DNA of 64,000 nucleotides, taken from the IMG/VR virus record IMGVR_UViG_3300045988_158233; one strand, given 5' to 3'. Of the stretch, positions 11,880 to 39,567 are shown piece by piece. Origin of the DNA: a virus (lineage: Duplodnaviria; Heunggongvirae; Uroviricota; Caudoviricetes). Position numbers and translations under genes: made by a program. The notes under the pieces were generated by a model. It was given only the letters and a program-made list of their open reading frames with translations, searched no databases and was not told where the DNA came from. Position 1 is the stretch's first letter; each line of letters starts with the position of its first letter.

Positions 11880-13016
11880 ACCAGTATTAGTCACATACAC
11901 ATTGACCGAAAATGATTTAACTTCTGTATTGAAGTTGTCAGTCATTACCGCGAGGTAGGCATTCTTGGTATCTCTGAATTGCTTCAGGATGATTTGAACG
12001 TTATCGGTGCAAACAAACGAGGTAGCCAGATTGCCTCCTTTCTCTGAAAAATCCTTCAGGAAGGTGCAGTCAACTTTGCCATCATTAGCGGTGAAGGTAG
12101 CATCATCACCCTGCCAGGTAAATGTAGCGTTAACGCCCTTATCAATGGATTTAGCAATAAGTCGCTGGGTGGCGGATTTTGTTTTGGCTTTGGAAGCCGG
12201 CGCTCGATATTTGCCGCTTTCTTTCAGTTCTGCAATGTAATCGCAGCCTCTTTTTTCTCCTTTATCGCAAGCAGTCTGATAAAGGTCGGCTGCTTTTTTA
12301 TAGTCCTTTTTTACACCTTCCCCATTCTCATACATAATGCCAAGATTGGTTATGGCGTCGGCGTTTCCAAGTTCCGCTGCCTTTTTATACCACTTAACTG
12401 CTTCTGCATCATTGCGTTTAACGCCTAACCCATCATCGTATAGTATTCCTAATCCTATCATAGCTTCTGAACTGCCTTGGTCTGCCGCCTTTTTGTAATA
12501 AGTAAAAGCCTTTTTATAATTCTTTTTAACGCCTTTACCATATTGGTAATACGCCCCAAGAACTGAAGTTGCTTTAACATACCCGGCATCAGAGGCTAGT
12601 TTGAAGTATTTAATGGCGAGTGCATGATCTACTTTACCAAGCATCCCCTTTTGATAAATAGCACCAAGATTGTTGTAGGCTCTACCTTCACGAGCATCCC
12701 CCGCAAGTTTGTAGTACTCAACAGCTTTATTTAGGTCTTTATCTACACCCTCGCCAAATGTGTACATAACTCCAAGTGCATAATATGCTACTTTATCTCC
12801 CTTTTCTGCAGCTAGATCAATCCACTTCTTGGCCTCAACTACATCCTTATCAAAACCATTGACACCATCAAAATAATTTGTACCTAACTCACTTTGTGCT
12901 GCGGTATCCCCTGCGGTAGCGGCTTCTATCAGCGTTTGTTTATTGTCTGCGTTAACGAATCCAGAGTTAAAAAGCAAAGTTAATGCCAGCAACGATGAAG
13001 ATTTTATGTATTTCAT
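11871..13016 (-). CDS. Secreted Sel1-repeat (TPR-like) protein
   Basis: Signal peptide MKYIKSSSLLALTLLFNSGFVNA, then about eight ~36-aa repeats of the form A-x-YY-LG-MY-x-GEGV-KD-x-KA-x-x-WYKKAA; C-terminal ~100 aa non-repetitive. Start trimmed to the Met at the signal peptide. Confidence 0.75.
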   Translation of the reverse strand: MKYIKSSSLLALTLLFNSGFVNADNKQTLIEAATAGDTAAQSELGTNYFDGVNGFDKDVVEAKKWIDLAAEKGDKVAYYALGVMYTFGEGVDKDLNKAVEYYKLAGDAREGRAYNNLGAIYQKGMLGKVDHALAIKYFKLASDAGYVKATSVLGAYYQYGKGVKKNYKKAFTYYKKAADQGSSEAMIGLGILYDDGLGVKRNDAEAVKWYKKAAELGNADAITNLGIMYENGEGVKKDYKKAADLYQTACDKGEKRGCDYIAELKESGKYRAPASKAKTKSATQRLIAKSIDKGVNATFTWQGDDATFTANDGKVDCTFLKDFSEKGGNLATSFVCTDNVQIILKQFRDTKNAYLAVMTDNFNTEVKSFSVNVYVTNTGSN

Positions 13017-13249
13017 GTTTTTTTTTCTGTTGATATAGGATGAACAGTTTAGACGCGGCAAGCGTCAAGTGTGCGAAAAAGGGTACTTAAATTTAGTTAA
13101 TATGTCAGCTTTGTTGATTTAGTTTATGGTCGGTAAAGTTACTGGGAAACTAATAACCATAAGAAATAGTACGCCATTTAATTATTGTGGCACTGCTCGT
13201 GTTTTGATTAACTAATACCTGCGATAAATATAAATAAAGGGAAGCCAAC

Positions 13250-13663
13250 ATGAGCAAAAATAAGCTGATTTTAACAGGAGCTTTATTGTCTTTGTTTGCT
13301 TTAGTGGGGTGTAAGCCTACAGACGAGAAGGCTATTGCTCTGGGCCAACAAGCAATTGCGGATGATATGAAAGATCCCACGTCGGTGATGTTTAGGAAAG
13401 ATAAGTTTGTCAGGACTGATCATGACGATGGGAGTGTGACAGGCTTTGTGTGCGGAGAATTGAACGCCAAAAATGGCTTTGGTGCATACGTGGGCTATCA
13501 CTCATATGTTGTTGAACTCGAAATGAAACCAAAGGGCATGTTTTCGAAAGGGGTGGTATACAAAATCCTATCGAAGTCGTTGGCACCTAATGATCCTCAT
13601 GACTTACAGCGTTATAAGCAGGTCTACAGAAAGATGTGCAACAGTGAGGCTGTAGCTCATTAA
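13250..13663 (+). CDS. Lipoprotein, function unknown
   Basis: MSKNKLILTGALLSLFALVGC: signal peptide with lipobox LVGC; 137 aa; divergent from the Sel1 gene. Confidence 0.6.
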   Translation: MSKNKLILTGALLSLFALVGCKPTDEKAIALGQQAIADDMKDPTSVMFRKDKFVRTDHDDGSVTGFVCGELNAKNGFGAYVGYHSYVVELEMKPKGMFSKGVVYKILSKSLAPNDPHDLQRYKQVYRKMCNSEAVAH

Positions 13664-13670
13664 TGGTGAA

Positions 13671-13696
13671 TGCCGGGCAGACTATAAGCCCGGCAT
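13671..13696 (+). terminator. Hairpin after the lipoprotein gene
   Basis: tgccgggc-agactataa-gcccggca inverted repeat. Confidence 0.45.
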
Positions 13697-13788
13697 CTTC
13701 GTATAGGGAACTATTGCGCCTAAAATGATAAGTAGATACATACTTAGTTTTTTGTAAGAATACTTTCATCTGTTAGCTAGGAGTTGGT

Positions 13789-18008: not shown

Positions 18009-18083
18009 GATGGTGTAGCTCAGCGGTAGAGCAGTTGGCTGTTAACCAACTGGTCGGTGGTTCGAATCCACCCACCATCGCCA
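18009..18083 (+). tRNA. tRNA-Asn (anticodon GTT)
   Basis: Manual fold: acceptor gatggtg/caccatc, T-arm ggtgg-ttcgaat-ccacc, anticodon loop ctGTTaa, 3' CCA encoded. Confidence 0.75.
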
Positions 18084-18088
18084 ATTTA

Positions 18089-18175
18089 GGAGAGTTAGTC
18101 CGTAGAGGTAGCGGGGTAGACTGTAAATCTACTGTCATTGCGACTCGGGTGGTTCGACTCCATCACTCCCCACCA
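18089..18175 (+). tRNA. tRNA-Tyr (anticodon GTA), class II with long variable arm
   Basis: Manual fold: anticodon stem gtaga/tctac with loop ctGTAaa, long variable arm, T-loop ttcgact, 3' CCA; one A-C mismatch in the acceptor stem. Confidence 0.65.
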
Positions 18176-18179
18176 AATT

Positions 18180-18255
18180 GCCGGTTTAGCTCAGTTGGTA
18201 GAGCGCCTGCCTTGTAAGCAGGATGTCAGCGGTTCGAGTCCGTTAACCGGCACCA
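18180..18255 (+). tRNA. tRNA-Thr (anticodon TGT)
   Basis: Manual fold: acceptor gccggtt/aaccggc, anticodon stem cctgc/gcagg with loop ctTGTaa, T-loop ttcgagt, 3' CCA. Confidence 0.75.
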
Positions 18256-18479
18256 ATACAACGATAAGATCATTACGGTTAATCGTCGTTCATGTGCACA
18301 ATGACTGGTCGAAAGGTAGTGATCTTACCGTTGTGGTGGATTCGCAGACTGATGCGATAGCTTTCTTGGATGTTAGGGAAATGCGGCCGCAAATCTTCCC
18401 TTTCGCGAGCGGTGATCGTCCGTAGTCCTAATTGGCTGCACCGTATGCCGGAGATTCAGTACCGGCTATCACAACGGCC

Positions 18480-18566
18480 GGAGAGTAGGGAGCATGGTGC
18501 TCAAGCGGTCTTGAAAACCGTCCCATTGCGCAAGCGATGATGGTTCGATTCCATTACTCTCCGCCA
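18480..18566 (+). tRNA. tRNA-Ser (anticodon TGA), class II with long variable arm
   Basis: Manual fold: acceptor ggagagt/actctcc perfect, anticodon loop ctTGAaa, long variable arm, T-loop ttcgatt, 3' CCA. Confidence 0.7.
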
Positions 18567-18722
18567 GACACAGCGTTGAGCGGTTTGGCCTTTTAATCAA
18601 CTCGATTAAGACTCCGCTAACATAAACCAGACCGCTCAACGCTGTGATAGACAATTACGGCAGACGTTCTTAACCATAGCTTGCTAACATCCTAGCAACA
18701 CTTTTTTTTCAGCGCAAAATTC

Positions 18723-18744
18723 AAAGGGGCTTCGGCCCCTTTTT
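18723..18744. terminator. Bidirectional rho-independent terminator
   Basis: aaaggggc-ttcg-gcccctttt, flanked by A-run on one side and T-run on the other; separates the tRNA cluster from the convergent minus-strand gene. Confidence 0.7.
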
Positions 18745-18751
18745 GGCTGGG

Positions 18752-19972
18752 TTAATTAAAACCGAATGAATTAAGTTCTGCTTTGAATTTATCGACCATT
18801 TTTTCAACTTCGTTTACAATTGCGTGAATCTCTTCGTCTTTTCTCGGATTAGAATTGAGGTCAAAATATGCCTTATATAAGGCATATTTTGACAAGCTTC
18901 CTTCAATATTTTCAGAGAAAATATTGGTACGACCATCAGTTAATAAGATATCAGCAGATCGGGAATTTAAATTATATTTATAGTAAATCTTTATTAGTCT
19001 GCTTATCTCTTTTTCATTCTTGATTACCCTCTGTCTTTTACCAGCAATATTAAGACTCCAGCCTACATAACTAGTCAGATCGGAATTAAACTTACACACT
19101 TCCGCATCAGCTTTTTCCATATTTAGATTAATATTATTTCTCATGTGTAGCGGTAATTCGTTGAATTTTTGCTGTAAATGCTGTTTGCAGGGATTGTTGT
19201 AAGACCACAGAATTGCGAACGTAGCTCTTTGCATCCGGGTATTCAGATCGATGTTAAAGTTCTCACGATCACGAATCATTTCATCTACATAAAACTCTAC
19301 AGCTTTTCGGTATTCTTTGTTAAAGATCTCGGTAACATACATTTCTAAATAATGGACTTTCGAGATTGCCTCATCAAAAAAAAGCTCACTCTCAAAGAAG
19401 TTGTATTTATTTAAGAGATTAGAAAGTCTACTTAAGTCATAGGTTTTATTATTTTCAATATTAAGACCAAAAATGGCAATTAACAGACTTACTTTATGAT
19501 TAATACTGCTACGTAATTGAGCTATATAAATTCTCTTTTCATCTTCTGCTGATGACAGTAGATAAAACTCTTTATCTAAATAATTTAAAATTAGAATTAT
19601 GTGATTTACATATTTAATGTAAATAGGTTGTTTTGTTACATAATAATAAATGCTTTTGATGGAATTAATGCTCAATTTCGTATTAAACTCTTTGTCATTC
19701 AACAAAGTGTTATTTACGTCCTCAAGTAATTTATCATGTTGCTCTAGTAATATTCCGTACCATTCCTTAAAAGAGGCTTTTTTCATTTCAAGAAGTGAAT
19801 CTGCCGTTAATTGTGTTGCCTTCATTGCAGCTTTTGCACTATTTCTTGCCTCATAAGCAGCCCAAGCAGTAACAAAAGTAGCAAGTGAACCTATAGCCTC
19901 TTTGTATTCTTTAGCCACATCCCAAAAAATAATAGTTATTACACACAATATGAGAATTAATATTAAAGGCAT
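18752..19972 (-). CDS. Hypothetical membrane-anchored protein (AT-rich moron; candidate exclusion/abortive-infection-type function)
   Basis: 406-aa minus-strand ORF; N-terminal TM helix PLILILILCVITIIFW then a K/E/N/I/Y-rich helical domain; very AT-rich codon usage compared with neighbours (by eye). Confidence 0.6.
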   Translation of the reverse strand: MPLILILILCVITIIFWDVAKEYKEAIGSLATFVTAWAAYEARNSAKAAMKATQLTADSLLEMKKASFKEWYGILLEQHDKLLEDVNNTLLNDKEFNTKLSINSIKSIYYYVTKQPIYIKYVNHIILILNYLDKEFYLLSSAEDEKRIYIAQLRSSINHKVSLLIAIFGLNIENNKTYDLSRLSNLLNKYNFFESELFFDEAISKVHYLEMYVTEIFNKEYRKAVEFYVDEMIRDRENFNIDLNTRMQRATFAILWSYNNPCKQHLQQKFNELPLHMRNNINLNMEKADAEVCKFNSDLTSYVGWSLNIAGKRQRVIKNEKEISRLIKIYYKYNLNSRSADILLTDGRTNIFSENIEGSLSKYALYKAYFDLNSNPRKDEEIHAIVNEVEKMVDKFKAELNSFGFN

Positions 19973-20178
19973 GTTATCTATATCGTTAGTTAATTTTGAA
20001 CATAAATGATACTTAGTCCACCGCTAAATTTCATCAAATTTGATAATTTTCTTGACGATCATGTCTCAAAATTATTTATACTTGGCATATTTGAGATATA
20101 TAATAATAGGTAATAACACACCTATCACATTTAAGCATCAACAAGATAAATTACGGACCCAGACCAGAAAGGAAACTA

Positions 20179-20427
20179 ATGAGAAATATACTTATCTACG
20201 GACGAGATAACTGCTCATACTGCAAACGTGCGGTCGAGCTGGCGAAGAAACTAAAGGGACATGGCTACGGTGATTATGAGTACATCGACATCACCACTGC
20301 CGGTATCGATAAGGAAAAACTTAGCGAAATTGTTGGTAAACCGGTAGAGACTATCCCCCAGGTGCTGATCGATGGCCAGCCGATTGGCGGATACACAGAA
20401 CTGGCTGCATACGTCAGCACCCTCTGA
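20179..20427 (+). CDS. Glutaredoxin / NrdH-like thioredoxin-fold protein
   Basis: 82 aa; CxxC active site in RDNCSYCKRAVEL near the N-terminus. Confidence 0.7.
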   Translation: MRNILIYGRDNCSYCKRAVELAKKLKGHGYGDYEYIDITTAGIDKEKLSEIVGKPVETIPQVLIDGQPIGGYTELAAYVSTL

Positions 20428-20432
20428 TTTTA

Positions 20433-20455
20433 ACGGCTCACAGGAGCCGTTTTTT
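20433..20455 (+). terminator. Rho-independent terminator
   Basis: acggctc-acag-gagccgt hairpin followed by tttttt. Confidence 0.65.
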
Positions 20456-20638
20456 ATTCCCACCAAACTCACACCTGTTTCCATTAAAATTCAAAAAACA
20501 ACGCCTGAATGATTCCATACCTACTATGTATGGAATCATTGCTGAAAATGAGTTACTTTTACTCTTGATCCTATAAGAATCTATGCCTAATATACTGTTT
20601 ACTTATACAGTGCATCGGCGTAACTCGGTGATTGTCAT

Positions 20639-21742
20639 ATGAAAAATAGCTTTGACAGAGCACGCGCTGCGGAGAACACCTCAAAAGAGGCGATAGAGTA
20701 TCTCGAAAGAGCATCTCAAATGCAGGCCGTTATGATCTCCCAGGTCAGCAATGACATGAGATTCTCGGACGCATTCATGTTATTCACTCGCTTATCTCTG
20801 CTGATAACCAGACGTCGGCCAGAGATCGCTGTTCATTGTATTTTGATACATGTTTTGCCGCACATTGCCGATGTAAAAGTAAGTGACATTAATAGGTTCA
20901 TGGTGAACCAACTGGTCAACCCACTAATACTGGATGGCAAAATTGTTATGGGCCGCCGCGTTTTCTCTCTGATGAAGCAGTTCCTTAGCTGGTGCGCCTT
21001 CCAGGGGATGATAGACGTGTCACCGTTAAACGATATGTCACTTAACAAAGTTGCCGGTGGCGCAAAGCCCACACCTCGCGAGCGGAAGCTGACCGACGCA
21101 GAGGTATGGGTGTTCTGGAATATATGGGACTACTTCAATGTGTGTGCTGGTACAAAATGGGCGGCCAGGCTGTGTCTTGTATCAGCAAGACGACCTGACG
21201 AAGTACTGCGGGCTAAAAAAAGTGAGTTCAATCTTAAGCGTGGGGTTTGGAATCAAGGCAAGAGGAACAAATCTGCCCGTGAGCATTCTCTGCCTTTAAG
21301 CTCATTAATGCGCACTTGTATTGAAGAGTTGTTCGAATATGGTAAAGACAGCCAGTGGCTCGTGCCTTCGAATAAAAAAATCGGGAAAGACCTTCCTATG
21401 TCTAAAGTGGCAATAGCCCAGGCATTACGTCGTATTCTGGAACGACCAGAACTGATGGAGCTTGAGCCATTTACACCCCGAGATTTGCGCCGTACTGCGC
21501 GTAGTTACTTCCCAGCATTAGGCATAAGCCAGGAGGTATCACGTAAAATCATGAACCACAGTCTTGAGGGGATAGATCGGGTCTACGACCGGCACGATTA
21601 TATGGACGAGATGCGAGACGCCTTAGAAAGTTTCTCGACGTACATCGCATCAATCGTAGAGCAACCGGATTTAGACGAAATTGACCACAAATTTAAGGGA
21701 GATCGTCTATCAACAGAGCTTATTCGTGTAAATTTTTCATAG
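20639..21742 (+). CDS. int: Tyrosine recombinase / phage integrase
   Basis: 367 aa; catalytic-domain residues in order: R in ARRPDEVLR, H-x-x-R in HSL...RRTARSY, and Y in RVYDRH. Confidence 0.75.
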   Translation: MKNSFDRARAAENTSKEAIEYLERASQMQAVMISQVSNDMRFSDAFMLFTRLSLLITRRRPEIAVHCILIHVLPHIADVKVSDINRFMVNQLVNPLILDGKIVMGRRVFSLMKQFLSWCAFQGMIDVSPLNDMSLNKVAGGAKPTPRERKLTDAEVWVFWNIWDYFNVCAGTKWAARLCLVSARRPDEVLRAKKSEFNLKRGVWNQGKRNKSAREHSLPLSSLMRTCIEELFEYGKDSQWLVPSNKKIGKDLPMSKVAIAQALRRILERPELMELEPFTPRDLRRTARSYFPALGISQEVSRKIMNHSLEGIDRVYDRHDYMDEMRDALESFSTYIASIVEQPDLDEIDHKFKGDRLSTELIRVNFS

Positions 21743-22123
21743 AGACTTTATGGCCTCAACAACCTTTTGTGATGCGCCTTTCTCTTTACCGAATCGCTCG
21801 TTATATGCAGCAAGAACCTGTTTTTCGTCCTCGTTAAGAGGAGCAGTGCCTTCTTTGTATAAAAATGCTGCGAGTTCGGGTTGGCGTTCTTCCAGCACCA
21901 TCATCATAAGACGACTTGGCTCAATACCCAGTGCCAGCGCCAGCGGACGAACCTTATCGATAGGCAAAGGAATTTTGCCGCTTTTAATTAAAGAAAGGTT
22001 GTTGGCGTTTTTATACCCAATTGTTTTGGCTATCTGGGCCTGGCTCATAGGTGAGGATTCAATCAACCCTGCGATAAAAGCAGCGTAGCGACTTTCTATA
22101 AATTCAATCTTGTTATCAGACAT
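21737..22123 (-). CDS. HTH (XRE-family) transcriptional regulator, repressor-like
   Basis: 128-aa minus-strand ORF with helix-turn-helix signature MSQAQIAKTIGYKNANNLSLIKSGK; divergent from a small + strand ORF across an AT-rich intergenic region. Confidence 0.6.
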   Translation of the reverse strand: MSDNKIEFIESRYAAFIAGLIESSPMSQAQIAKTIGYKNANNLSLIKSGKIPLPIDKVRPLALALGIEPSRLMMMVLEERQPELAAFLYKEGTAPLNEDEKQVLAAYNERFGKEKGASQKVVEAIKSL

Positions 22124-22374
22124 GGTTACAACCTTTGCGCGTTCAATTCTCTCTGGTAAGTGCTTACCGATATTACATCAAAGGTTAGGGTTGTAAAGCT
22201 ATTATCATTTTTTTCGATAGGCACTTAAAAGACCGGTTAAAGGCCATTGCACGGAGAAAAATTAGCCCAAAACAGGTAAGAAAATCAACTTGCATATGAT
22301 ATGTATGTATTCAGTATTGATACAAATTTTAGTAGTATTCCTTACCATAGTATAAGTTAGAATGGATTGATTGA

Positions 22375-22587
22375 ATGAACACCACTATTTCCAGCCTAAT
22401 CGCTCTTGAGATCGGACACGTACAGAAATTAGCTGATGAGTGTGTAGCTGACATCCTCACCGATCTACCGAATGAGCAGATTCAGGTTGGTGTGAATGAC
22501 ACAACTGGATTTATATTCGAACTTAACAACAAACGCTTCACGCTTCTCAATACCGGCTCCGGGTCTTTAGCCGTCAGAATCTGTTAA
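22375..22587 (+). CDS. Hypothetical small protein, divergent from the repressor (Cro-like position)
   Basis: 70-aa ORF. Confidence 0.3.
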   Translation: MNTTISSLIALEIGHVQKLADECVADILTDLPNEQIQVGVNDTTGFIFELNNKRFTLLNTGSGSLAVRIC

Positions 22588-22685
22588 CCCCTCTTCTCCC
22601 TGCGCGAATGGCTTAGTTCCCTGTTCGCGCAGTGCTACATTAAACACACTAGTAAATAATTTGTTTTCATAACAAAGGATTAGCC

Positions 22686-24794
22686 ATGTCTAAAAAACGT
22701 TCCATCAAAGAGGTTCAGGACTTCCGTGACAGTGTAAAACGAGTAGTCGCTCTCCTTTCAGGTAAAAACATCCCTGTTGCAGAACGAGGGGACGACGCTT
22801 ATGTACGCTATAACGATGATGGAGAGCCAATTCTCGTAAACATCCCATCAATCCCGGATAACGCAACACCGGCATTGATGAATGCTGTGCGCGGATTTCT
22901 CGATCATGAGGTTGCTCACATTTTGTTTACCGATATTCGTGTGTCCAACAAAATGAGAGAAAAAGGACGCGTTCCTTCCTGGTCGCTATGGAATGCCTTA
23001 GAAGACGTGTTCATCGAGCGAAAAATGGGTCAGGTCTTTAACGGAACAAGACGTAATCTGATGGCAACTCAGCGCCTTATAATCGAAAAAGTCTTTAAAC
23101 CAAAGGCTTCAGAGGCTATTGCTTATTGTGGCAAAGATCAGCGCGCGCTTTTTCTAAACTTCTTTCTCTGTCCGGTTGTAAGAGCCTGGGATGGCCAAGC
23201 ACCGTTCGTAGATTTCATGGATGAATATTGGCCTGTCATTGAGAAACCAATTTCATTATTAAAAGAACATGGTATCGATGTGGCCGTGCGTAACATGTCT
23301 TGCACCGAGGATTGTGTAAAGGTGGCTGCGACCATAGCTAAGATCCTCAAAGACACTGAAAGTGAAAGCAAAGGTAAGGAGTCAGCTCCGGGAAAAACTT
23401 CCGATCCTTCAGACGCTGACCAGACGGATGCCTCTGGAGAAAACAATGAAGACAACGAAGATCATGAGACACCCTCAGCGTTAGATAACCACAAATCTAT
23501 CAAATCAGAATCACAGAGTAAGCACAAACATGATAATAACGACAGTGATGATTCAGATAATTCTGAATCATCAGAAACAATATTCGATGATACAGAAAAT
23601 GATAAAGAGGTATCAGATTCTGATGCTTCTGATAACGCGGTGTCAGAATCATTTACCGCTGACCACGAAAAAAGAAAAACGACAGAAGACGGCTCTTCAG
23701 ATATTCCAACTCCGTCAAAAATGAGTCTGGAAGAGGCTTTAGAGGAGCTGGATAGCATAGAAGATGAAGTCGGAGGCATGACAGAAGATGCTCTATCCGA
23801 AACGATTAAAAGCGAGTTAACAGAAAGCTCGAAAAGCGAATACAGGCCATACAATCGCTCATACGACTTCATCGGCTCGATTGATCAGGCAGAAGCCCAT
23901 ATCAAACGGCTTATTAAAACATTCTCCGATATTGATTTAGGAGGATATCCAATCAGCCGCTATCGCATCGTTCCTGAAGGCAACCAGCTCTTCGACAAAT
24001 ATATTGAAAAGCATCTTTCGTCAGGTGTTTCGTCGACGCTGGCAAAAGACCTGGAGCGAGCAATAGCAAGCAGAAACAGAGTTCAGTTTATACCGGGCCA
24101 GCGTCGGGGGCGCATTCATGGTTCTAGTATCTACAGATTAGCAATGAATGATGATCGCGTGTTTCGTAAAAAAGAAGAATCTAAAGCCGTTAACGCCTGT
24201 GTTCAACAAGTGATTGATTTATCAGGTTCAATGAGTGGTATAACGATACAATTGGCTCTTGCAAGTGCATATACCATCGCCGATGCCCTTGATCGAATAA
24301 ATGTTCCCAACATTATCACCGGCTTCACTACATTTGGTAGTCATATGGCGGCAGGAGAACTTAAGGCTGTCAAGTATGAGTTCTCTCGCTTTGAATCTTT
24401 AATGCTACCTATCATCAAAAATTGGAATGAAAAGGTAAATTCTCGCGAAGTTCGCTCACGTATGGGGTGCGTAGGCTACACATTCCCACTTCTTAATAAC
24501 GTGGATGGTGAAAGCATAGCCAGCCTTGCATCGTTATTTTCCGGTCGCATGGAGGACAGGAAGATCATGCTTGTTCTGAGTGATGGCGCGCCGTGGGCTG
24601 TTGGGAGAGGTTTTGACGCTCATTTGCGTTCGGTTGCGAAGCAAATTGAAACGCAGACTGACATTGATTTGATGGCAATTGGCATCATGACTGACGCACC
24701 GGAGAGATTTTACTCAAATCATGCCCTGGTAACGAGCGTTGATAGTCTTGGTTCATCTGTAGTTACTGAACTATCTCGTATCATTTTAAAGTGA
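22686..24794 (+). CDS. CobT-like protein with C-terminal vWA domain and long acidic Ser/Asp/Glu-rich linker
   Basis: 702 aa; MIDAS motif VIDLSGSMSG in the C-terminal domain; ~120-aa low-complexity acidic region mid-protein. Confidence 0.65.
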   Translation: MSKKRSIKEVQDFRDSVKRVVALLSGKNIPVAERGDDAYVRYNDDGEPILVNIPSIPDNATPALMNAVRGFLDHEVAHILFTDIRVSNKMREKGRVPSWSLWNALEDVFIERKMGQVFNGTRRNLMATQRLIIEKVFKPKASEAIAYCGKDQRALFLNFFLCPVVRAWDGQAPFVDFMDEYWPVIEKPISLLKEHGIDVAVRNMSCTEDCVKVAATIAKILKDTESESKGKESAPGKTSDPSDADQTDASGENNEDNEDHETPSALDNHKSIKSESQSKHKHDNNDSDDSDNSESSETIFDDTENDKEVSDSDASDNAVSESFTADHEKRKTTEDGSSDIPTPSKMSLEEALEELDSIEDEVGGMTEDALSETIKSELTESSKSEYRPYNRSYDFIGSIDQAEAHIKRLIKTFSDIDLGGYPISRYRIVPEGNQLFDKYIEKHLSSGVSSTLAKDLERAIASRNRVQFIPGQRRGRIHGSSIYRLAMNDDRVFRKKEESKAVNACVQQVIDLSGSMSGITIQLALASAYTIADALDRINVPNIITGFTTFGSHMAAGELKAVKYEFSRFESLMLPIIKNWNEKVNSREVRSRMGCVGYTFPLLNNVDGESIASLASLFSGRMEDRKIMLVLSDGAPWAVGRGFDAHLRSVAKQIETQTDIDLMAIGIMTDAPERFYSNHALVTSVDSLGSSVVTELSRIILK

Positions 24795-24889
24795 ACAAAA
24801 CAGCCTTAACGATAAGTAACCACTTACGATAGATAATGATATATTTATATAAGAAGTTGAACGCTCATTAGAAAACAAAGGAAAAACGC

Positions 24890-26125
24890 ATGACTACTAC
24901 TGCACTGCAAAATGAAAAAAATCCTTCTGATTACCTTGTTTGCAAGTGGTGCGGAAAATCATTTCACTATTTTAAGTCCCATGTAGCCAATGGTAATTGC
25001 GAGGGCATTCCTGAGTCAGTAAAAGATGCCGATCCTGACACCGTACTGAAAATGTACACAACACAGTTTCCAGATGAGCCAACGCTATCGAAAAAGGCAC
25101 TTGATGCAATTCAAGCTAAACGTGCCGAGCAAAAAAGCGAAATGGCCAAATCATCTGGCGTGACCAGTAGCCCAGGCTACACAGGCACAGTTGAGTACAA
25201 GACAGATCTGGTCGCAGCTCACGAACTGCTAAATGTAACGGTGAAAGAACTCGGAACAAAACGTGGGACGCCGCTCATGGTTAGCGTCAACGTCAATACG
25301 CCGTTTCCAGAGTTCGTTCCAGAAGTGAAGAAGGGATACGTATATGGCGACTTCGAACTGATCAAAGACATTTTCATGATGCTTGAACTTGGCATACCTG
25401 GCTATTTGTGGGGTCATGCAGGAACAGGCAAATCTTCATTGCCTACACAACTATGTGCTTTGCTCAATCGTCCGTTAATCCGTGCCCAACATACAGCATC
25501 AATGGAAGAGGCTCATGTTACGGGACAAATTCTGGCGCGTGATGGCTCTACGTATTTCGAGCCTGGCTTGCTTGCGCTCGCAATGAAGCATGGCTGGGTT
25601 TACCTCGCGGATGAATACGACTTTGCGTTTCCACAGATTCTTGGCGTGTATCAGCCAGTGCTGGAAGGTGAAGCGTTGGTCATCAAAGAGGCGACTCCAG
25701 AATGGCGTCGCATTACTCCGCATGAACGGTTTGCTTTCATTGGCACTGGCAACACGAACGGATCTGGTGATGAAACCGGCTTGTACCAGGGTACAAACAT
25801 CCAGAACGCCGCGAACTTTTCGCGTTTTGGCATCGTTTCGAATGTGAAATACATGAGCAAAGAGGCAGAGATCAACATGTTGATAAATGCCGGTATCGTG
25901 GATGAATACGCAGAAAAGATGGTTAAGTTTGCCGGTATCGTTCGCGATGGATACGAAGAACACCTTATCAGTCAGCCAATTGGCCCTCGTGAACTTTTGT
26001 TGTCGGCCAAGATTGGAATGATGCGAGGCGACTTTGTGACAGGTATTGAGCGTTCTTTCATTAACAAACTCCCTTCAGCTTCTGCACAAGCGGCTCGTGA
26101 AGTTGTTCAAAAAATATTTGGTTGA
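24890..26125 (+). CDS. CobS/MoxR-like AAA+ ATPase
   Basis: 411 aa; Walker A GHAGTGKSSLPTQL, Walker B-like VYLADEYDF; paired with the vWA protein as in MoxR-vWA couples. Confidence 0.65.
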   Translation: MTTTALQNEKNPSDYLVCKWCGKSFHYFKSHVANGNCEGIPESVKDADPDTVLKMYTTQFPDEPTLSKKALDAIQAKRAEQKSEMAKSSGVTSSPGYTGTVEYKTDLVAAHELLNVTVKELGTKRGTPLMVSVNVNTPFPEFVPEVKKGYVYGDFELIKDIFMMLELGIPGYLWGHAGTGKSSLPTQLCALLNRPLIRAQHTASMEEAHVTGQILARDGSTYFEPGLLALAMKHGWVYLADEYDFAFPQILGVYQPVLEGEALVIKEATPEWRRITPHERFAFIGTGNTNGSGDETGLYQGTNIQNAANFSRFGIVSNVKYMSKEAEINMLINAGIVDEYAEKMVKFAGIVRDGYEEHLISQPIGPRELLLSAKIGMMRGDFVTGIERSFINKLPSASAQAAREVVQKIFG

Positions 26126-26331
26126 TCGTGCGTAAAGGATGTTTCGGCTCTCTTATCGCTGCTTCTGAAACTGGTAAGGCTTGTCTGGTGTGTCCAGACA
26201 AGCCCGATTGTCACCAATCAGCAAAAGAAGTTGCGATTTCGATGCATGGGAAGTTCGTAGGCTTCCCCAATGACAAAATCAAAAAAACCAGAAAGGTAAA
26301 AACACATGAAGGCACTGATGGTTCGAACTGA
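26122..26331 (+). CDS. Hypothetical small Cys-rich protein
   Basis: 69-aa ORF with CLVCPDKPDCH; overlaps both neighbours, so it may not be real. Confidence 0.2.
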   Translation: MIVRKGCFGSLIAASETGKACLVCPDKPDCHQSAKEVAISMHGKFVGFPNDKIKKTRKVKTHEGTDGSN

Positions 26332-29300
26332 CTTCTCACTTGGGGAGTCGGCTCTAAAAGCAGAAAACGCGGTGAAGATTGCCAGAGAAGCTGGCTACAC
26401 CGCTGTAATTTCAGCAGATAGCATGAATATTGCGAGCGTTATTCCACTACAACGTGCCGCTGGTGACGACATGGCGGTTATTTGTGGTGTGAAACTAAAC
26501 ATTGTTGATGATCCCACATACGAGCACCGGGCTAAACTTGCTAAAGAATCTATGAGATGTATGGAATCATTAGAGCGGGGACGTAACTACTCGTTTACCG
26601 CTCTAATTAAAAATGAGCAAGGATATCGCGACATCTGCGAACTAATGACGGTGGCCAACACACGAGAACAGTTCTACTTTGTACCGCGTCTCTCGCTCGA
26701 ACAGTTGGTTTCTACATATGCCAAAGGCAACATCATCCTGCTCACTTCCGACATCGGTAGCGTGTTCCAACGCAACGATTTTGCAAAAATCATAAGCTCA
26801 CTGATTACAGCGGGCGGGAAAGACAACTTCTATAGCGTGGTTTATCCGCACCCTACCCCATTCTACGACCAGATTAACGTCCGAGCGATGAAAGTAGCCA
26901 GCGCACTGAAAATAGAGCCAGTAGCGTTCTATCCCGCTTATTACGAATCGATCGACGATGCAGACATTAAAGACATTGCGCACATGGTTACGAACAACAT
27001 AAAAATCGACCAGCCGCATCGTCTGCGTATCCCCCACCAGCGAGATAACGCCGTCAATGGTCGCCGCCATCTCCTTGAGGCGCTTAAAGCCTTCTCCGTT
27101 CGCATGGATGTGCCGGTAACAGCTGCAATGGCCTCAACAACGCAGGACTCCATTATCGAAGCCTGTACATGGCGCTGGCATGAATTGCCACCAGCACTGC
27201 CCAAGATGGCAGACGACGAGCCTGCAACGCTGATGAAACTGGCTGTTGCAGGGCTGCGCAAACGTCTTACCACAAAAGAGTTTGGCTACACACCACCGGC
27301 TTCTGAGAACAGGGTTTATGTTGAGCGACTTAAGTACGAAATGGACACGCTTACTCGCCTGGGATTTTGTGGTTACTTCCTGATGGTACGCGATCTGATG
27401 AATCACAGCCGTGAAACTGGCATTCCTGTCGGGCCTGGTCGTGGTTCCTCCGCTGGCTCTTTGGTGGCATGGTGCATAGGCATAACCAACGTCGACCCTA
27501 TCCGTCACGGTCTTCTGTTTGAACGTTTCATCAACCCTGAGCGTCTCGACTTGCCAGATGCGGATTTGGACTTCAGCCAGGCACGTCGCCATGAGGTGAT
27601 CGAGTATCTGAATGAACGATACGGCGAAGATTACGTTGCGGGTATTCCGAACTTCACATATCTGGGCGCAGCCTCTGCACTACGTGACACCGCTCGTATT
27701 TATGGTGTGGAGTCCGCAGATATGGCGGTATCAAAAGAACTGAAGAACGTCGAGGATGATAGCCTTCCATTGGAAGAGCTGCGCGAACAACTGGCAAGTC
27801 TCGACAAATACGCGACAAAATATCCTGATGCATTCAATGCAGCCTGCAAGTTACAAAGCCTTATGCGTGGCTTTGGTAGACATGCGGCAGGGATGATCGT
27901 AGCAGGTGTTCCTCTGACAGAACGTACACCGGTTGAGCGCCGTGGTGACGCGCGTTGTATCGCATTTGACAAGCGTTACTGCGAGGCTATGGGCCTAATT
28001 AAGCTGGACGTACTTGGCCTAGCAACTCTCGATTTGCTTGATAGTGCAAAACGCTACATTAAAGAGAACACAGGTGAAGATATCAATCTTGATGCCATTT
28101 CTCTTGAAGATCGCAAGGTGCTGGATGGTTTTGCTGCTGGGTACACTCAAGGTGTTTTCCAGCTTGAATCAGGCCCAATGCGCAAGCTGCTTAAAGATTT
28201 AGGTGGTGGAATTGAGCCAATGAGCTTTAAAACGGTCGTCGCTACGACTGCGCTCTTCCGGCCGGGGCCAATTCAGTCAGGCATGTTGGATGACTATGTT
28301 TCTGTCGCCAAAGGCTTTATGACGCCGGAATCATTACACCCCGTTCTTGATGAACTTACCGCGGAAACAAATGGCGTGATTCTCTATCAGGAACAGACGA
28401 TGAACGCGACTCGATTGCTTGCCGGCTTCACAATGGCTGAAGCTGACGCTGTGCGTTCCGCAATCGGTAAGAAGAACATGGAAAAAATGAAGAGCATGGG
28501 CGAGAAGTTCATCGTTCAGGCTCAAGCTGGCTGGATAGACGTTGAGCTGGAAGATGGCACTACACAGCGCATTCACCGTGCGGAACATTTTAAATGCGAA
28601 GACGGAACTCTGAAAACTGTCGAAGAGGCACTTGAGCACGGCGCAAAACTACCTATAAACGCAGTACGCGTTACAGCGTCACATCCAGGGCTATCAGAGA
28701 TGAAAGCGAAGGAGATCTGGACCGCATTCGAAAAAAATGGTGCCTACCAGTTCAACAAATCACACTCTGTTGCTTACTCCTTGATCAGTTATCAATCTAT
28801 GTGGTTGAAAACTCATTATCCCGCAGAGTTTTTCGCTGCTGCTCTCACTATTCTTGGCGAAGATAAACACCAGGGGCTGGTTAAAGATGCGCTGACCTAT
28901 GGTATTCGCGTATTGCCACCAGACGTTAACGTGTCATCCAACCGAATCGAGATCCGCACGCTTGAAGATGGCAGCCAGGTGCTGTATGCGCCCTTCTCTG
29001 CTGTGAAGGGGTGTTCTGAGAATGGCTGCCAAGCCATCATGAGAGCGCGAGAAAAAGTTGGCGGCAAATTCGAGTCACTGGCGCAATTCGAAGAAGCTGT
29101 CGAGAAACGTGCCTGTAATAGTCGAGTGCGCGAATCGCTGCAAAAAGTAGGGGCGTTTGCATCCATCGAGCCAGGTAGTCTGCCAGCAACTGATCCAGAG
29201 CGCCTACGCGACCAGGCTGAATTGATGGGAAACCTTGTCATAGACGCAGTTAAAGCCTCACGTCCGTTTGAGATGAACTCCAAACGTTCGGCTGAGATTA

Positions 29301-29824
29301 ACGTGCTCATGACACGGATGGCGGCTGAAATGGGCTTAGGTGATGAACTAATCCGCCCCAGCATTGGTATTAAGCCGAAAATCATGATCATTCTGGACAA
29401 TGCGAACGGCAATGATGCTCGAACCGGTTACTTTATGGAGAACGGATACGACGATTTTAAGGCCAAGCTATTGACGGCTGGAGATTTACGCATGGGCGAT
29501 CTGTATGTCACAGGCGTTTGCAAAAAGGTGAAAGACAAAGAAAAGGACTACACCAAAGACGAGATCGGCCAGTTCACCGACTTTATGCGTGAAGAGATCA
29601 ATCTGGTACGTCCGACCTATGTGCTGACGTGTGGCAGCCGGGCGACGTCGCTCTTCAACAACAAGATCAAACCATCCGACCTGGTTGGACGCAAAGAGTA
29701 TCTGCCGGAGCTAGATGTGACTGTTTTCTACGGATTTAACCCGAATATTTTGTACTTTCGCCCAGAGGAAGGCGAAAAGCTGGAAGCAATTCTTGCAGAG
29801 GTAGCGGAGACTATTAGCAAATGA
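26306..29824 (+). CDS. dnaE: DNA polymerase III alpha-subunit-like (DnaE family) replicative polymerase
   Basis: 1172 aa; PHP-like N-terminus; conserved Pol III alpha core [52 protein letters not shown]; C-terminal ~150 aa of different character. Confidence 0.85.
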   Translation: [1172 protein letters not shown]

Positions 29825-29972
29825 ACAAAGAGAACACCATGAAGGTGGCCAGAGAGAAAAGAGTTTATGGAAGTAAACAAGATTGGCGATGTAAGACAGT
29901 ACAGGCTGAAGTGCCAAACCAGAGTCTCGCTATCCAACATTCTTGGTAAGAAGGTCGCTTAATATAATAAAC

Positions 29973-29997
29973 AGGCCCGTTATATAACGGGCCTTTT
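29973..29997. terminator. Bidirectional terminator between convergent genes
   Basis: aggcccgtta-tata-acgggcct hairpin with T-run. Confidence 0.65.
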
Positions 29998-29999
29998 AG

Positions 30000-30980
30000 T
30001 TAACAAATTCTATTATTAACTAGTATAGTATGGAGTTTATTATTTATAGGGGAATACGGATCGAAATCACTCATCATGACACTATTTGATTCGCACGCCT
30101 GTTCAAAGGCATACATAATTATAGGCATATAGCGCTCATGACATTTTTTAAGTGATTTAACTTCCTCTGATAGATACTCTAGTCGATTGTTACCTCTAAT
30201 AGCCAATTCCACCTCATCATATGAGTACAACAAATCGTTTAAATCACAGAAAAAATTAAAATTTGGTAGTCCATGTTTTAAATCCCCGTCCACAATTGTT
30301 TCTTCAAAGAATTCCCCTAATGCAGTAATGTTTCTCTCAATACCTTCGCATCGTTCAATGATCTTCAGATCTTCACTAGATAGCCATAATCTAAGCCATT
30401 TCTCTCTATCCCTTGGAGATTTCAGATATTGGTCTTCGTTAAATGTTACTGATGTACTTCCTGAGTTATTGTAATCCGCTGTACTTGATAACGATGCGAT
30501 GGTTTGTTTGTCTAAATGCCGCCAGTAAATATCTGGCTCTTCATGCTTATTATCTTCGTTTAGACAAATTAAAACGATCACTATAGGGAAATCGCATTCC
30601 CCCCAATACTTTAAATTTTTATAGGGGATCTGTACTCCTAGACTACTACTCATTGTGCGTGAGGTGGTTTTTACCTGAACGCCAATAAACATACCGGTAG
30701 AAAGTTCATTTTCATAGATTTCAACCTGTGCATCCAACCCCATATCAATATCCAGCAGTCGACAAGGCCATTTGAAATAACGGGAAATCCAATAAGCAAA
30801 TAAGTACTCACCAGCGTGTCCTTCTGCACTGGTCTTCGGATATGTCATGCCTTCAGTTTTATTTTTTTCTGCTGCTGACCTCGCAGACTTAACTTTTGGG
30901 GGTGGGGACAGTTCTTTAGTCGGCACAGGCTTTTCTGCTTTTGCTTGATTGTTAGCTTTATTCATTGATTTTATTCTCAC
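30000..30980 (-). CDS. Hypothetical protein with N-terminal PD-(D/E)xK-like nuclease motif (AT-rich moron)
   Basis: 326-aa minus-strand ORF; GEYLFAYWISRYFKWPCRLLDIDMGLDAQVEIYEN...GMFIGVQVKTT has acidic residues followed by a strand ending QVK, as in restriction-endonuclease-fold nucleases; Lys-rich N-terminal tail; AT-rich by eye. Confidence 0.55.
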   Translation of the reverse strand: MRIKSMNKANNQAKAEKPVPTKELSPPPKVKSARSAAEKNKTEGMTYPKTSAEGHAGEYLFAYWISRYFKWPCRLLDIDMGLDAQVEIYENELSTGMFIGVQVKTTSRTMSSSLGVQIPYKNLKYWGECDFPIVIVLICLNEDNKHEEPDIYWRHLDKQTIASLSSTADYNNSGSTSVTFNEDQYLKSPRDREKWLRLWLSSEDLKIIERCEGIERNITALGEFFEETIVDGDLKHGLPNFNFFCDLNDLLYSYDEVELAIRGNNRLEYLSEEVKSLKKCHERYMPIIMYAFEQACESNSVMMSDFDPYSPINNKLHTILVNNRIC

Positions 30981-31093
30981 TTTGTTCTGTTCGCTTTATG
31001 CCCTGATTCTGCCCTTTAGCTCCCATACTGTCTACCGCTAATCATAGCAGTAAAGCTCTTTTTATTTGATATAATCAAATACACAAAATTAAG

Positions 31094-31540
31094 TTGGAAC
31101 CTATCAAAATGAGTGCAGATATCTACGAAAAAATAATGTCCGATCTTGAATTCGACCGCGACAATCTGGAGGAAGTCTGGCGTCAGCAACCGCGCTTGTT
31201 GATGGAGTATGGCTCAAAACTCGCTCATGCAGAAAGAAGTGTCGCAGAGGCAAAACTTAACCTTGAAGCTGTTGAAGCAAAGCTATACGACACAGAGCGT
31301 AAGAACTTGAGTATGAACGGCATTAAGTTCAACGAGTCTGTACTGGACGCTAAGGTTAAAACAAACCCACAGTATCTATCTAAACGTCAGAAGTTGGATG
31401 ACGCACGGCACATAGCAGACATATACAAACATGCTGTCGCCGCCTTTTCGCATCGCCGAGACATGATCGTTCAGGCGTCAAAGATGGCCATCGTTGAATT
31501 AGAGCGATTAGGCTCTGAACGCTTTATTACTCCCCGTTAA
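31094..31540 (+). CDS. Hypothetical protein
   Basis: 148-aa ORF, helical/charged. Confidence 0.4.
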   Translation: MEPIKMSADIYEKIMSDLEFDRDNLEEVWRQQPRLLMEYGSKLAHAERSVAEAKLNLEAVEAKLYDTERKNLSMNGIKFNESVLDAKVKTNPQYLSKRQKLDDARHIADIYKHAVAAFSHRRDMIVQASKMAIVELERLGSERFITPR

Positions 31541-33959: not shown

Positions 33960-35033
33960 ATGGCAAAAGGAAAATCCGCACTGGCACTTGCTCTGAAAAA
34001 GAAAATCGGTAGCAACGACGAAATTCAGAAAGTAACTCATTGGATTGATACAGGCTTTCCACCGTTAAACAAAGCTATTTCTGGTCGTTACGATGGCGGC
34101 TTCCCATGTGGTCGTATCGTCGAAGTATTCGGTCCTCCAAGTGCAGGGAAAACGTTCCTTGCAACAGCAGCGATGATCTCCGCTCAAAAACAAGATGGTC
34201 TGGCGGTATTCCTCGATCATGAAAACAGTTTTGACGTTGGCCTGGCTGTAGCCAATGGCCTGAACGCAGATGAGGATGACGGTCAGTGGGTATACAAGCA
34301 GCCAGATACCTTCGAAGACTCTGTAGAGTTGATCGGCACAATACTTAAATTGGTTCGTGATGAAGAGCTTATCCCCGAATCAGCACCTATCTGTATCGTG
34401 GCTGACTCTCTTGCGTCTATGGTTCCGAACTCCAAAGCTGAGAAGTTCGAAAAGATGGCTGAAGGCACTGCCAAAGACAAAGATCAGCTAAACATGAACG
34501 ACAATACGGCACTGGCTCGTGCGACGAGTGCGAACTTCCCTACTCTGGCTTTGTGGGCACGCAAATACAACGCCTGCATCATCTTCTTGAATCAGGTTCG
34601 CACAAAAATCGGTGTAATGTTTGGCGACCCTACTACGTCGCCAGGTGGAGATTCACCGAAGTTCTACGCTTCTGTACGTATCCGTCTTGGTGCATCGGTG
34701 ATGAAGGATGGTAAAGAGAAGATCGGCCAGGACGTAGGCGCAGAATGCATCAAAAACAAAGTTGCACCACCGTATGGCAAATGCACCTGGAAATTCTACT
34801 TCGATCCTACTCGTGGCCTCGACGTTATCGAATCGCTCGTCGAGTACATGCTGGAAGAAGGATACCTGCCAAAGAACGCCAGCGGGCGAGTTGAAATTGG
34901 TGACAAGAAATACACCAAATCGCAGATCGTCGAGATGTATCGGGAGAAGCCACTGGCTGAAATCATTGCGGCTTTGCAGGCAATCGACGACCGAAGAGCA
35001 AAAGACAACCCCACCGAGTCAGTAGAAGAGTAA
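33960..35033 (+). CDS. RecA-family recombinase (UvsX/Sak4-like)
   Basis: 357 aa; GRIVEVFGPPSAGKTFLATA matches the RecA Walker A context. Confidence 0.7.
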   Translation: MAKGKSALALALKKKIGSNDEIQKVTHWIDTGFPPLNKAISGRYDGGFPCGRIVEVFGPPSAGKTFLATAAMISAQKQDGLAVFLDHENSFDVGLAVANGLNADEDDGQWVYKQPDTFEDSVELIGTILKLVRDEELIPESAPICIVADSLASMVPNSKAEKFEKMAEGTAKDKDQLNMNDNTALARATSANFPTLALWARKYNACIIFLNQVRTKIGVMFGDPTTSPGGDSPKFYASVRIRLGASVMKDGKEKIGQDVGAECIKNKVAPPYGKCTWKFYFDPTRGLDVIESLVEYMLEEGYLPKNASGRVEIGDKKYTKSQIVEMYREKPLAEIIAALQAIDDRRAKDNPTESVEE

Positions 35034-37771: not shown

Positions 37772-37817
37772 ATGCAAACTGACTGCGGCACGTTCCGCAG
37801 TCATATTTCATAGTCGT

Positions 37818-38351
37818 CACCGCTGACAGCATACACAATCAACTGCCGCTGATAGCATATCGAGAGTCTATCTCACCGCTCACAGCATACTTTACTCGAT
37901 TTTTTACCGCTGACAGCATACTTAAGACATTGCATGAATAATGTGTACCGGTATGGGTATAACCAGAACAAAATTACCGCTGGCAGCATACGAAGGTCTG
38001 ATATATGCCATTAATTACCGCTGATAGCATATCCAAACAAAAATTCCTCAATAAAACACCGCTGACAGCATACGTTCTATCAGGGAGCAGCAGGCAATAA
38101 ATACCTTTCACTACAAGTAATCAGCGCAATGGGAATAGAATGTTAGTGAGCGCAAACCTATATGGAATGCACTCTTCGAGGTTAGTAACCACTGGGGAGG
38201 TATAAAAGAGCATTGAGTGGTGATAGATGATTTACCGCTCACAGCATACGTTTATCTCACTATACCGCTGGTAGCATATCTTTAACCGTTCACAGCATAC
38301 TTTTCAGAAAAATAGCCGCTGATAGCATACATTTCACCGCTGACAGCATAT
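37818..38351. repeat. Iteron array downstream of repA (about 12 copies of a 17-bp repeat, consensus yACCGCTGAyAGCATAy)
   Basis: Copies at about 37818, 37844, 37874, 37905, 37975, 38026, 38057, 38233, 38263, 38284, 38314, 38335; irregular spacing; all in the same orientation. Confidence 0.8.
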
Positions 38352-39445: not shown

Positions 39446-39464
39446 GTGGACACCTTTGTCATTC

Positions 39465-39567
39465 AACCGCTGACAGCATACTTGATTTGCCGCTGACAGA
39501 ATACCAAAAACAGTTGGCAGCATACGGTGAACCGCTGACAGACTATCAATTACCGCTGACAGCATAC
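39465..39567. repeat. Iteron array upstream of repA (about 5 copies; probable origin/autoregulatory region)
   Basis: Copies of the same repeat at about 39465, 39488, 39515 (partial), 39529, 39551. Confidence 0.75.

Follow-up and report, generated by a model that had tools for sequence, protein, structure and literature searches.

In the aerobic cobaltochelatase CobSTN, the CobS ring grips the shaft of CobT (Q373-D414), the N-terminal domain CobT_N binds the small domain of CobS, and CobN is placed between CobT_N and the face of CobT_C that bears the MIDAS (short for metal ion-dependent adhesion site) (Zhou et al. 2026, bioRxiv 10.64898/2026.07.21.739949). Related gene pairs are known from viruses. 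In group 2.2 T4-like jumbo phages, a MoxR-vWA pair has been described whose vWA protein carries an N-terminal metallopeptidase domain, and a role in virion assembly was proposed (Iyer et al. 2021, PMC7824862); the cobT gene of cyanophages is often annotated as a peptidase (PMC8651126). Here, we analysed such a pair in the IMG/VR virus record IMGVR_UViG_3300045988_158233, a stretch of 64,000 nucleotides (nt) that we call the window. The pair consists of a CobT-like adaptor of 702 amino acids (aa) (22686..24794, phrog_1576) and a CobS-like AAA+ ATPase of 411 aa (24890..26125, phrog_249), both on the + strand; the two open reading frames (ORFs) exist exactly as an earlier note on this DNA had described them. 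We propose, with a probability of about one half, that they form a phage paralogue of the CobS/CobT motor-adaptor, which remodels, and probably cleaves, a client other than CobN during lytic replication. This proposal builds on the domain architecture of the two proteins, the conservation of their motifs, their synteny and the failed tests of chelatase membership.

The adaptor matches phrog_1576 over its full length (E 1.4e-300 across aa 5-702), as well as Pfam CobT (aa 9-294, E 7.9e-28) and the vWA family CobT_C (aa 492-701, E 1.3e-82), and the NCBI name of its family is 'cobaltochelatase CobT-related protein'. The entire CobT architecture, composed of CobT_N, acidic linker, shaft and vWA-MIDAS, is present. 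The N-domain (aa 1-221, 22686..23348) has a predicted zincin-like fold with helix 1, a three-stranded sheet and then helices. It is followed by an acidic Ser/Asp/Glu-rich linker (aa 222-385, 23349..23840), presumed from its composition to be disordered, whose 163 aa include 51 D/E and 44 S/T and carry a net charge of -37; the acidic region announced by the earlier note is thus real, whereas its length of ~120 aa was underestimated. The equivalent linker of 91 homologues measures 108-273 aa, with a median D/E content of 37% and a median net charge of -53, and solved CobT has a disordered linker of ~90 residues (bioRxiv 10.64898/2026.07.21.739949). Since both these homologues and canonical CobT have a counterpart, the linker is a family trait inherited from the CobT architecture and not a peculiarity of the window protein. 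The shaft-equivalent segment (aa 468-497, FIPGQRRGRIHGSSIYRLAMNDDRVFRKKE, 24087..24176) aligns with residues ~373-414 of PDB 9uka_G; in the 91 homologues G475 is invariant and G471, L482 and F493 are nearly so. The vWA domain (aa 492-702, 24159..24791), delimited by Pfam CobT_C, alignments with PDB 9uka_G and 21vt_A, and invariant columns, has a complete MIDAS: the string DLSGSMSG occupies aa 511-518, with D511-x-S513-x-S515 at nt 24216-24230, and the remaining positions, N605 in NNVDGES and D633 in LSDGAP, align with solved CobT, whose MIDAS comprises D422, S424, S426, N518 and D546 (bioRxiv 10.64898/2026.07.21.739949). The previously noticed vWA domain with its DLSGSMSG motif is therefore borne out by both the Pfam match and the aligned residues.

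The N-domain carries a HExxH motif, HEVAH (aa 74-78, 22905..22919), preceded by D73, and further downstream the segment EDVFIE (aa 106-111, 23001..23018), which lies in a helix predicted at 97-117. In the 91 full-length homologues, which share ~30% identity, the invariant columns of this domain include D73, H74, E75, H78, E106, D107 and E111, so that the Glu of the catalytic base (E75) is invariant as well, beside the metal ligands. An exhaustive HMMER search with aa 1-230 recovered 1138 cluster representatives at E<=1e-3 (clusters at 50% identity, with mostly metagenomic members), and HExxH is present in 148 of the 150 best ones. Furthermore, the profile phrog_459 ('peptidase') matches the HExxH region with E 5.7e-8. 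The AlphaFold2 model of aa 1-228 (pLDDT 92.5, pTM 0.88) consists of helix 1, a three-stranded sheet (strands 31-53), the HExxH helix 62-81 and the long helix 97-117 with E106, D107 and E111. The predicted fold thus places HExxH on a helix following a small beta-sheet, which is the gluzincin (M48-like) layout, and in this model E106 or E111 is a candidate third zinc ligand. Canonical CobT_N has the same topology and was called M48C-like (bioRxiv 10.64898/2026.07.21.739949). A single-sequence phmmer search of the N-domain against PDB returned spurious HLA and SOD matches only, and Foldseek found no significant match for the N-domain model in a PDB copy that extends to April 2026 and may lack CobT entries.

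Comparison of the phage protein with solved CobT reveals a clear difference at this site. The two align without gap from RG to NL, the phage protein reading RGFLDHEVAHILFTD...WNALEDVFIERKMG and CobT RGLGDSMALRQARHN...FDAVEQARVEAIGA, and CobT has D-S-M-A-L-R where the phage protein has D-H-E-V-A-H, that is, S-M-A-L-R in place of HExxH; hhalign likewise puts DHEVAH over DSMALR. None of the 120 canonical CobT N-domains has HExxH, and all but two of them carry [SA]-[MILF]-A-[LM]-[RK] after RGxxD. For the canonical alignment, a profile search and a query with a fragment of P. denitrificans CobT were used, and only the PDB sequence that this query returned serves as evidence. Since HExxH is absent from all 120 domains, canonical CobT has, to judge from these alignments, the character of a degenerate zincin, whereas in the phage family the catalytic signature is retained in full, down to the general-base Glu.

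The CobS-like protein matches phrog_249 over its full length (E 2e-106 across aa 11-410) and, above the cut-off, Pfam AAA_5 (E 2.1e-15). Its AAA+ module (aa 141-411, 25310..26122) aligns with solved CobS (PDB 9ujv_A, E 1.8e-25) and contains the Walker A motif GHAGTGKS (aa 175-182, nt 25412-25435) and the Walker B motif YLADEYD (aa 238-244, nt 25601-25621), of which K181, D241 and E242 are invariant in 33 CobS-like homologues. It belongs to the MoxR class and has its vWA partner gene 95 nt upstream; the pairing of a CobT-like vWA protein with a CobS-like ATPase, already recognized from the letters alone, is corroborated by the Pfam matches and by those to PDB 9ujv and 9uka, all much stronger than chance would give. 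The ~100 N-terminal residues (aa 1-~100, nt 24890-25189) constitute an extension that is a feature of the family, because CobS-like homologues at ~45% identity span 96-97% of the protein. Inside this phage-specific extension lies a putative Ros/MucR-type zinc-finger motif, C18-x2-C21-x9-H31-x5-C37 (24941..25000). Among the 33 homologues, C18 is invariant, C21, H26 and H31 each show a conservation of 90% or more, and C-x2-C-x9-H-x4/5-[HC], the Ros/MucR spacing, fits 28 sequences; Pfam ROS_MUCR matches 14 of them (best E 7.7e-5), the window protein itself being unmatched. It is reasonable to suppose, though unproven, that this finger may bind DNA. Neither the HExxH motif of the adaptor nor the finger of the ATPase figured in the earlier note.

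The pair is followed on the same strand by a Cys-rich ORF of 69 aa (26122..26331, phrog_6337, E 2e-45), which overlaps both the stop codon of the CobS-like gene and the start of the next gene, and by the gene for DNA polymerase III alpha, DnaE (26306..29824, +; Pfam DNA_pol3_alpha, E 1.3e-73, and other DnaE domains). The 69-aa ORF corresponds to the N-terminal Cys-rich part of a ~180-aa protein that precedes DnaE in relatives (BLASTP E 1.3e-8 to a 189-aa protein of L002 and 1.4e-4 to a 180-aa protein of nickie). Synteny of the block CobT-CobS-(Cys-rich ORF)-DnaE extends over ~105-120 kb phages of Gamma- and Alphaproteobacteria, and the pair is syntenic with DnaE in phages of E. coli, Salmonella, Klebsiella, Ectothiorhodospira, Rhizobium, Pseudomonas and Stenotrophomonas, in agreement with the previous remark that such pairs recur next to replication genes. 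In an Ectothiorhodospira contig and in ~96-kb uncultured phages, whose CobS-like proteins are ~45% identical, the order is integrase, helix-turn-helix (HTH) gene on the - strand, small ORF, CobT-like gene, CobS-like gene and a sigma70_r2 protein, and onward the ~180-aa protein, DnaE, a gp32-like single-stranded DNA-binding protein (SSB), a 5'-3' exonuclease, RecA and a metallophosphoesterase. In the Rhizobium phages RHEph10 and X66, the Pseudomonas Nickievirus phages and the Stenotrophomonas phage BUCTxx99, a ligase (or helicase-primase) gene is followed by the CobT-like gene, the CobS-like gene, one to three small genes and DnaE. Since these latter relatives keep the order of the block without lysogeny genes beside the pair, those found beside it in the window represent an insertion within a conserved block of replication genes.

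The host element itself bears on the chelatase question. The 4.1-kb stretch round the gene pair is 99.4% identical to Escherichia phage Cyrano, which is the phage-plasmid pLF82 of E. coli LF82, and its 3' 60% is 75% identical to Salmonella phage SSU5; the stretch also matches 465 plasmid records, most of them for non-mobilizable plasmids from Escherichia, Enterobacter, Yersinia, Salmonella and Citrobacter. These identities and plasmid matches assign the window to an SSU5-like phage-plasmid of E. coli. Cyrano, a functional siphovirus, has ~5.5 copies per cell and shows 39-fold induction by ciprofloxacin (PMC9928086). In its record, the CobT-like gene (CYRAN_47) is labelled 'dimethylbenzimidazole phosphoribosyltransferase' and the CobS-like gene (CYRAN_48) 'cobalamin synthetase' (L001 20387-23826); these labels are a name collision with the unrelated CobT and CobS enzymes of Salmonella. 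As to true chelatase membership, the adaptor scores 72.6 bits against the CobT equivalog TIGR01651 (EC 6.6.1.2), over aa 442-697 only, where the cut-off is 759.05, and the ATPase 84.8 bits against the CobS equivalog TIGR01650, where it is 558.55. The window contains no CobN-sized ORF besides DnaE, its sole ORF of >900 aa. Similarly, Cyrano positions 22751-108379, the ~86 kb whose annotation was examined, include neither CobN nor a B12-dependent enzyme by annotation, and the same region lists a class I ribonucleotide reductase (RNR; NrdAB), ThyX, dihydrofolate reductase and a Pol III epsilon-like exonuclease. Because of the scores under the cut-offs, the lack of CobN in the window and the examined part of Cyrano, and the class I RNR, neither protein can, on this comparison, be taken for a true cobaltochelatase subunit, and the earlier judgement that cobalt chelation is unlikely holds. 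To our knowledge, E. coli has no aerobic B12 pathway and no de novo B12 synthesis; Salmonella has an anaerobic B12 pathway, for which CobNST is not needed. Aerobic cobalt insertion in E. coli required heterologous cobN, cobS and cobT (PMC6249242). Hijacking of host CobN by viral CobST to boost B12, as is commonly proposed (PMC1079782, PMC8651126), cannot apply to this element.

By homology with CobSTN, the CobS-like protein would form an ATP-driven hexameric ring that grips the shaft of the adaptor at aa ~468-497, and the adaptor would hold its client between the N-domain and the vWA-MIDAS, in the place that CobN takes in the chelatase. A client so placed would face an intact zincin active site, and it would probably be cut as well as remodelled, because the phage N-domain keeps the complete zincin signature D-HExxH...ED...E. 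The pair would then act as a two-component, ATP-coupled, MIDAS-directed zinc metalloprotease, whose Ros/MucR-type finger may tether the ring to DNA. Action is most likely early in lytic development, presumably on a protein with a part in phage DNA replication or in the takeover of the host, since the pair is co-oriented with DnaE in the replication block and apparently unexpressed in lysogeny. Indeed, in LF82 lysogens the repressor gene CYRAN_45 is among the expressed Cyrano genes, whereas CYRAN_47 and CYRAN_48 are not listed (PMC9928086), which fits expression of the pair in the lytic phase. A role in plasmid stability is not favoured, because the pair is off this list and is kept in relatives without an adjacent integrase or repressor gene. 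A bolder form of the proposal, which we consider unlikely, is that of a DNA-tethered zinc metalloprotease: six Ros/MucR-type fingers would hold the ring on phage or host DNA, the ring would pull on the shaft of the adaptor, the MIDAS would capture an acidic residue of the DNA-bound client and the zincin would cut it, so that nucleoid, defence or replisome proteins of the host would make way for the DnaE replisome of the phage.

Several points weigh against an ATP-coupled protease in phage replication. The Nickievirus phages (DSEISK, DSEIAK) and the Stenotrophomonas phage BUCTxx99 (DREVST) are without both His ligands and keep the pair and its place before DnaE; since two lytic lineages have lost both His yet retain the pair, its core function cannot strictly need zinc proteolysis. 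The Roseobacter phage CRP-810 retains HExxH and has the two genes in the order CobS-CobT, away from any DnaE, and the link to replication may thus reflect timing of expression and not mechanism. In Rhizobium phages, the second Cys of the finger is lost. Finally, a literature search found no paper with an experimental function for a phage member, and one on pHCM2, pMT1, cobT, cobS and dnaE combined found no paper.

The lineages without His ligands also count in favour of a non-proteolytic MoxR-vWA chaperone, which would assemble or remodel a complex, for instance the DnaE-epsilon replisome or a metal-cofactor site, with HExxH in a structural or metal-handling role. Assembly or metal insertion is the task of many MoxR/vWA pairs, CobST, NorQD and CbbQ being among the PDB matches of this pair, and canonical CobT functions with a degenerate zincin domain. 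On the other hand, invariance in the 91 sequences extends to E75, to both His and to the downstream E/D/E, HExxH is nearly universal among the best cluster representatives, and a general-base Glu is not usually preserved in a purely structural site. A chaperone of this type therefore seems to us rather doubtful, though a serious candidate. The chaperone-like remodelling suggested in the earlier note is incomplete as an account, since with the invariant HExxH a protease role becomes no less likely than that of a pure chaperone. Removal of a host barrier is a more specific version of the protease explanation and is not exclusive of it: a DNA-tethered zincin would destroy a host protein bound to DNA, for example a silencer of the nucleoid, a nuclease of restriction or defence, or part of the replisome, in the manner of the ArdC metalloprotease domain or of Spartan/Wss1 with Cdc48. 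We regard such a counter-defence or host-takeover protease as quite unlikely, as neither protein has a credible PADLOC match (only DrmE, E 1.4e-3) or belongs to a known anti-defence family.

The architecture of the pair would also suit a chaperone and processing protease for virion assembly, as in the jumbo-phage proposal and as demonstrated for the MoxR/vWA pair of Acidianus two-tailed virus, because a comparable MoxR and metallopeptidase-vWA arrangement was described with such a role in mind (PMC7824862). However, the pair of the window, like that of every examined relative with DnaE, is surrounded by genes for helicase, primase, ligase, DnaE, SSB and RecA and is not in the structural module, which makes virion assembly very unlikely here. 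Sequence homology to CobS and CobT, together with the fact that some hosts of related phages (Pseudomonas, Rhizobium) use the aerobic CobN pathway, speaks for genuine auxiliary metabolic genes, whose products would plug into host CobN and raise cobalamin synthesis. This hypothesis has been stated in the cyanophage and archaeal-virus literature (PMC1079782, PMC8651126). It can hardly be credited for the present pair, given the scores far under the equivalog cut-offs, the lack of CobN in the window and in the examined ~86 kb of Cyrano, the host B12 physiology of E. coli and Salmonella, the B12-independent class I RNR of the phage, the position in a replication block, and the conserved HExxH and zinc finger that true CobT and CobS do not have.

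Two narrower candidates were also considered and dropped. A protease of ImmA type acting on the neighbouring HTH repressor by cleavage does not suit relatives that keep the pair in place without an adjacent integrase or repressor. A metallochaperone for the PHP domain of DnaE was discarded from a reading of the DnaE N-terminus, MKALMVRTDFSLGES, which has no HxH metal motif.

Upstream of the pair and divergent from the block lies an XRE-type, repressor-like HTH gene (21737..22123, - strand; Pfam HTH_19, E 7.8e-4), whose Cyrano homologue is CYRAN_45, annotated as putative repressor; it is probably context only and not part of the machine. Directly before the CobT-like gene is an ORF of 70 aa (22375..22587, +; phrog_2627, function unknown, E 8.8e-41). 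ORFs of 61-77 aa occupy this position in relatives, and no significant mutual similarity was found among them. A repeat scan of the intergenic region 22100-22700 gave short, unconvincing repeats only. The scan for promoters and terminators did no better than on shuffled sequence, and only a bidirectional terminator-like hairpin after DnaE (29973..29994), found by pattern scan only, is worthy of note; it is the first + strand terminator-like site downstream of 22375, which, with the overlaps of the 69-aa ORF, is in keeping with an operon.

The replication block also varies in composition. In many relatives, a sigma70_r2-like protein is encoded between the CobS-like gene and DnaE (L002 11254-11877; L003 11182-11856; L008 9819-10454), whereas the window is without such a gene and the gene that follows is reduced to the 69-aa remnant. 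Similarly, the DnaE of relatives ends in a C-terminal uracil-DNA-glycosylase-like domain, Pfam UDG (L002 12440-15808; L003 12387-15809; L008 11219 onward), and the window DnaE has no UDG match at E<=0.01. Directly after DnaE, a low-GC insert (29812-31129) contains an ORF on the - strand (30000-30980) that encodes a DUF4365 protein (E 2.3e-16) and also matches the PADLOC Argonaute-associated REase-type model (E 2.2e-10). Since Cyrano has a HicAB toxin-antitoxin pair at the site of this insert and the window a DUF4365 gene, the site looks like a variable hotspot for defence or addiction genes. The window RecA (33960-35033) has 357 aa and appears to be intein-free, because the Cyrano RecA gene is longer (2340 nt) and the RecA of a relative shows a weak Pfam intein match.

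Other differences from Cyrano are scattered over the window. A low-GC (0.38) insert at 18086-20489 has no counterpart in Cyrano; it contains an ORF on the - strand (18752-19972, 406 aa) without Pfam or PADLOC match and adjoins a cluster of tRNAs (18009-18566; Asn, Tyr, Thr, Ser), which exceeds that of Cyrano by one tRNA (Tyr). The segments 11839-13727 and 37772-39578 have no Cyrano match either, each with a minus-strand ORF of ~400 aa (11871-13061 and 38351-39565, respectively). Since the segment 37772-39578 occupies the site of the Cyrano RepA gene, the replication initiator may differ from that of Cyrano. Compared with the intact Cyrano gene, nrdA (class I RNR alpha, 45283-47642) has a tandem duplication of ~43 nt and is split into the overlapping ORFs 45283-46881 and 46827-47642, which is either a frameshift/pseudogene or an assembly artefact.

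Part of this picture was already available, namely the families phrog_1576 and phrog_249 and the peptidase domain on phage vWA-MoxR pairs (Iyer et al. 2021, PMC7824862). The residue-level contrast with solved CobT, the zinc finger of the ATPase, the deep synteny with DnaE and the context excluding chelation are new. They matter because the pair is widespread, its routine annotation is 'cobalamin/porphyrin biosynthesis', and virome studies score it as an auxiliary metabolic gene for B12. If the pair is in truth an AAA+/vWA machine with an active zincin, metabolic inferences on B12 drawn from viromes need revision, phage replication biology gains a new type of ATP-coupled protease or remodeller, and the chelatase adaptor CobT would originate as a degenerate zincin. 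Were the DNA-tethered protease to prove true, cobalt and magnesium chelatase adaptors would descend from such a protease and many calls of viral B12 auxiliary metabolic genes would be wrong. Since the 2026 structures of CobSTN give a template, the idea is directly testable in the tractable Cyrano/pLF82 or SSU5.

FtsH is an AAA+ ATPase fused to an M41 zincin, and the zincins Spartan and Wss1 are DNA-associated and work with Cdc48/p97. The phage pair shares with them the logic of an AAA+ unfoldase joined to a HExxH zinc protease, which is an analogy only: there is no sequence kinship beyond the AAA+ and zincin superfamilies, and in the phage the two activities would lie on separate proteins, linked through a shaft-in-pore and MIDAS adaptor. 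The prokaryotic Cys2His2 finger of Ros/MucR (PDB 2jsp; Pfam PF05443) has the pattern C-x2-C-x9-H-x3/4-H; the putative finger of the phage protein differs from it in having Cys at x5 as fourth ligand and in being fused to an AAA+ ATPase. The jumbo-phage pair (ASV44728, ASV44729), compared by description only, has the same architecture as ours; its report links it neither to CobS/CobT nor to synteny with DnaE, to phage-plasmids or to a zinc finger (PMC7824862). The viral 'cobS/cobT' genes of cyanophages, pelagiphages and haloarchaeal viruses are annotated alike and are probably members of one broad family with the window pair. In those studies the peptidase label was held to be an error and the genes to be B12 boosters (PMC1079782, PMC8651126), whereas the peptidase motif is the best-conserved feature of the window pair, whose host is not known to have CobN. 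The aerobic cobaltochelatase CobS/CobT (PDB 9ujv, 9uka; Zhou et al. 2026, bioRxiv 10.64898/2026.07.21.739949) is a close match, as the same two-gene module with an AAA+ ring and an adaptor that combines an M48-like N-domain with a disordered acidic linker, a shaft and a vWA-MIDAS. The phage pair departs from it by scores under the equivalog cut-offs, no CobN in the window, HExxH in place of SMALR, the location in a replication block and an extra N-terminal zinc-finger extension of ~100 aa on the ATPase.

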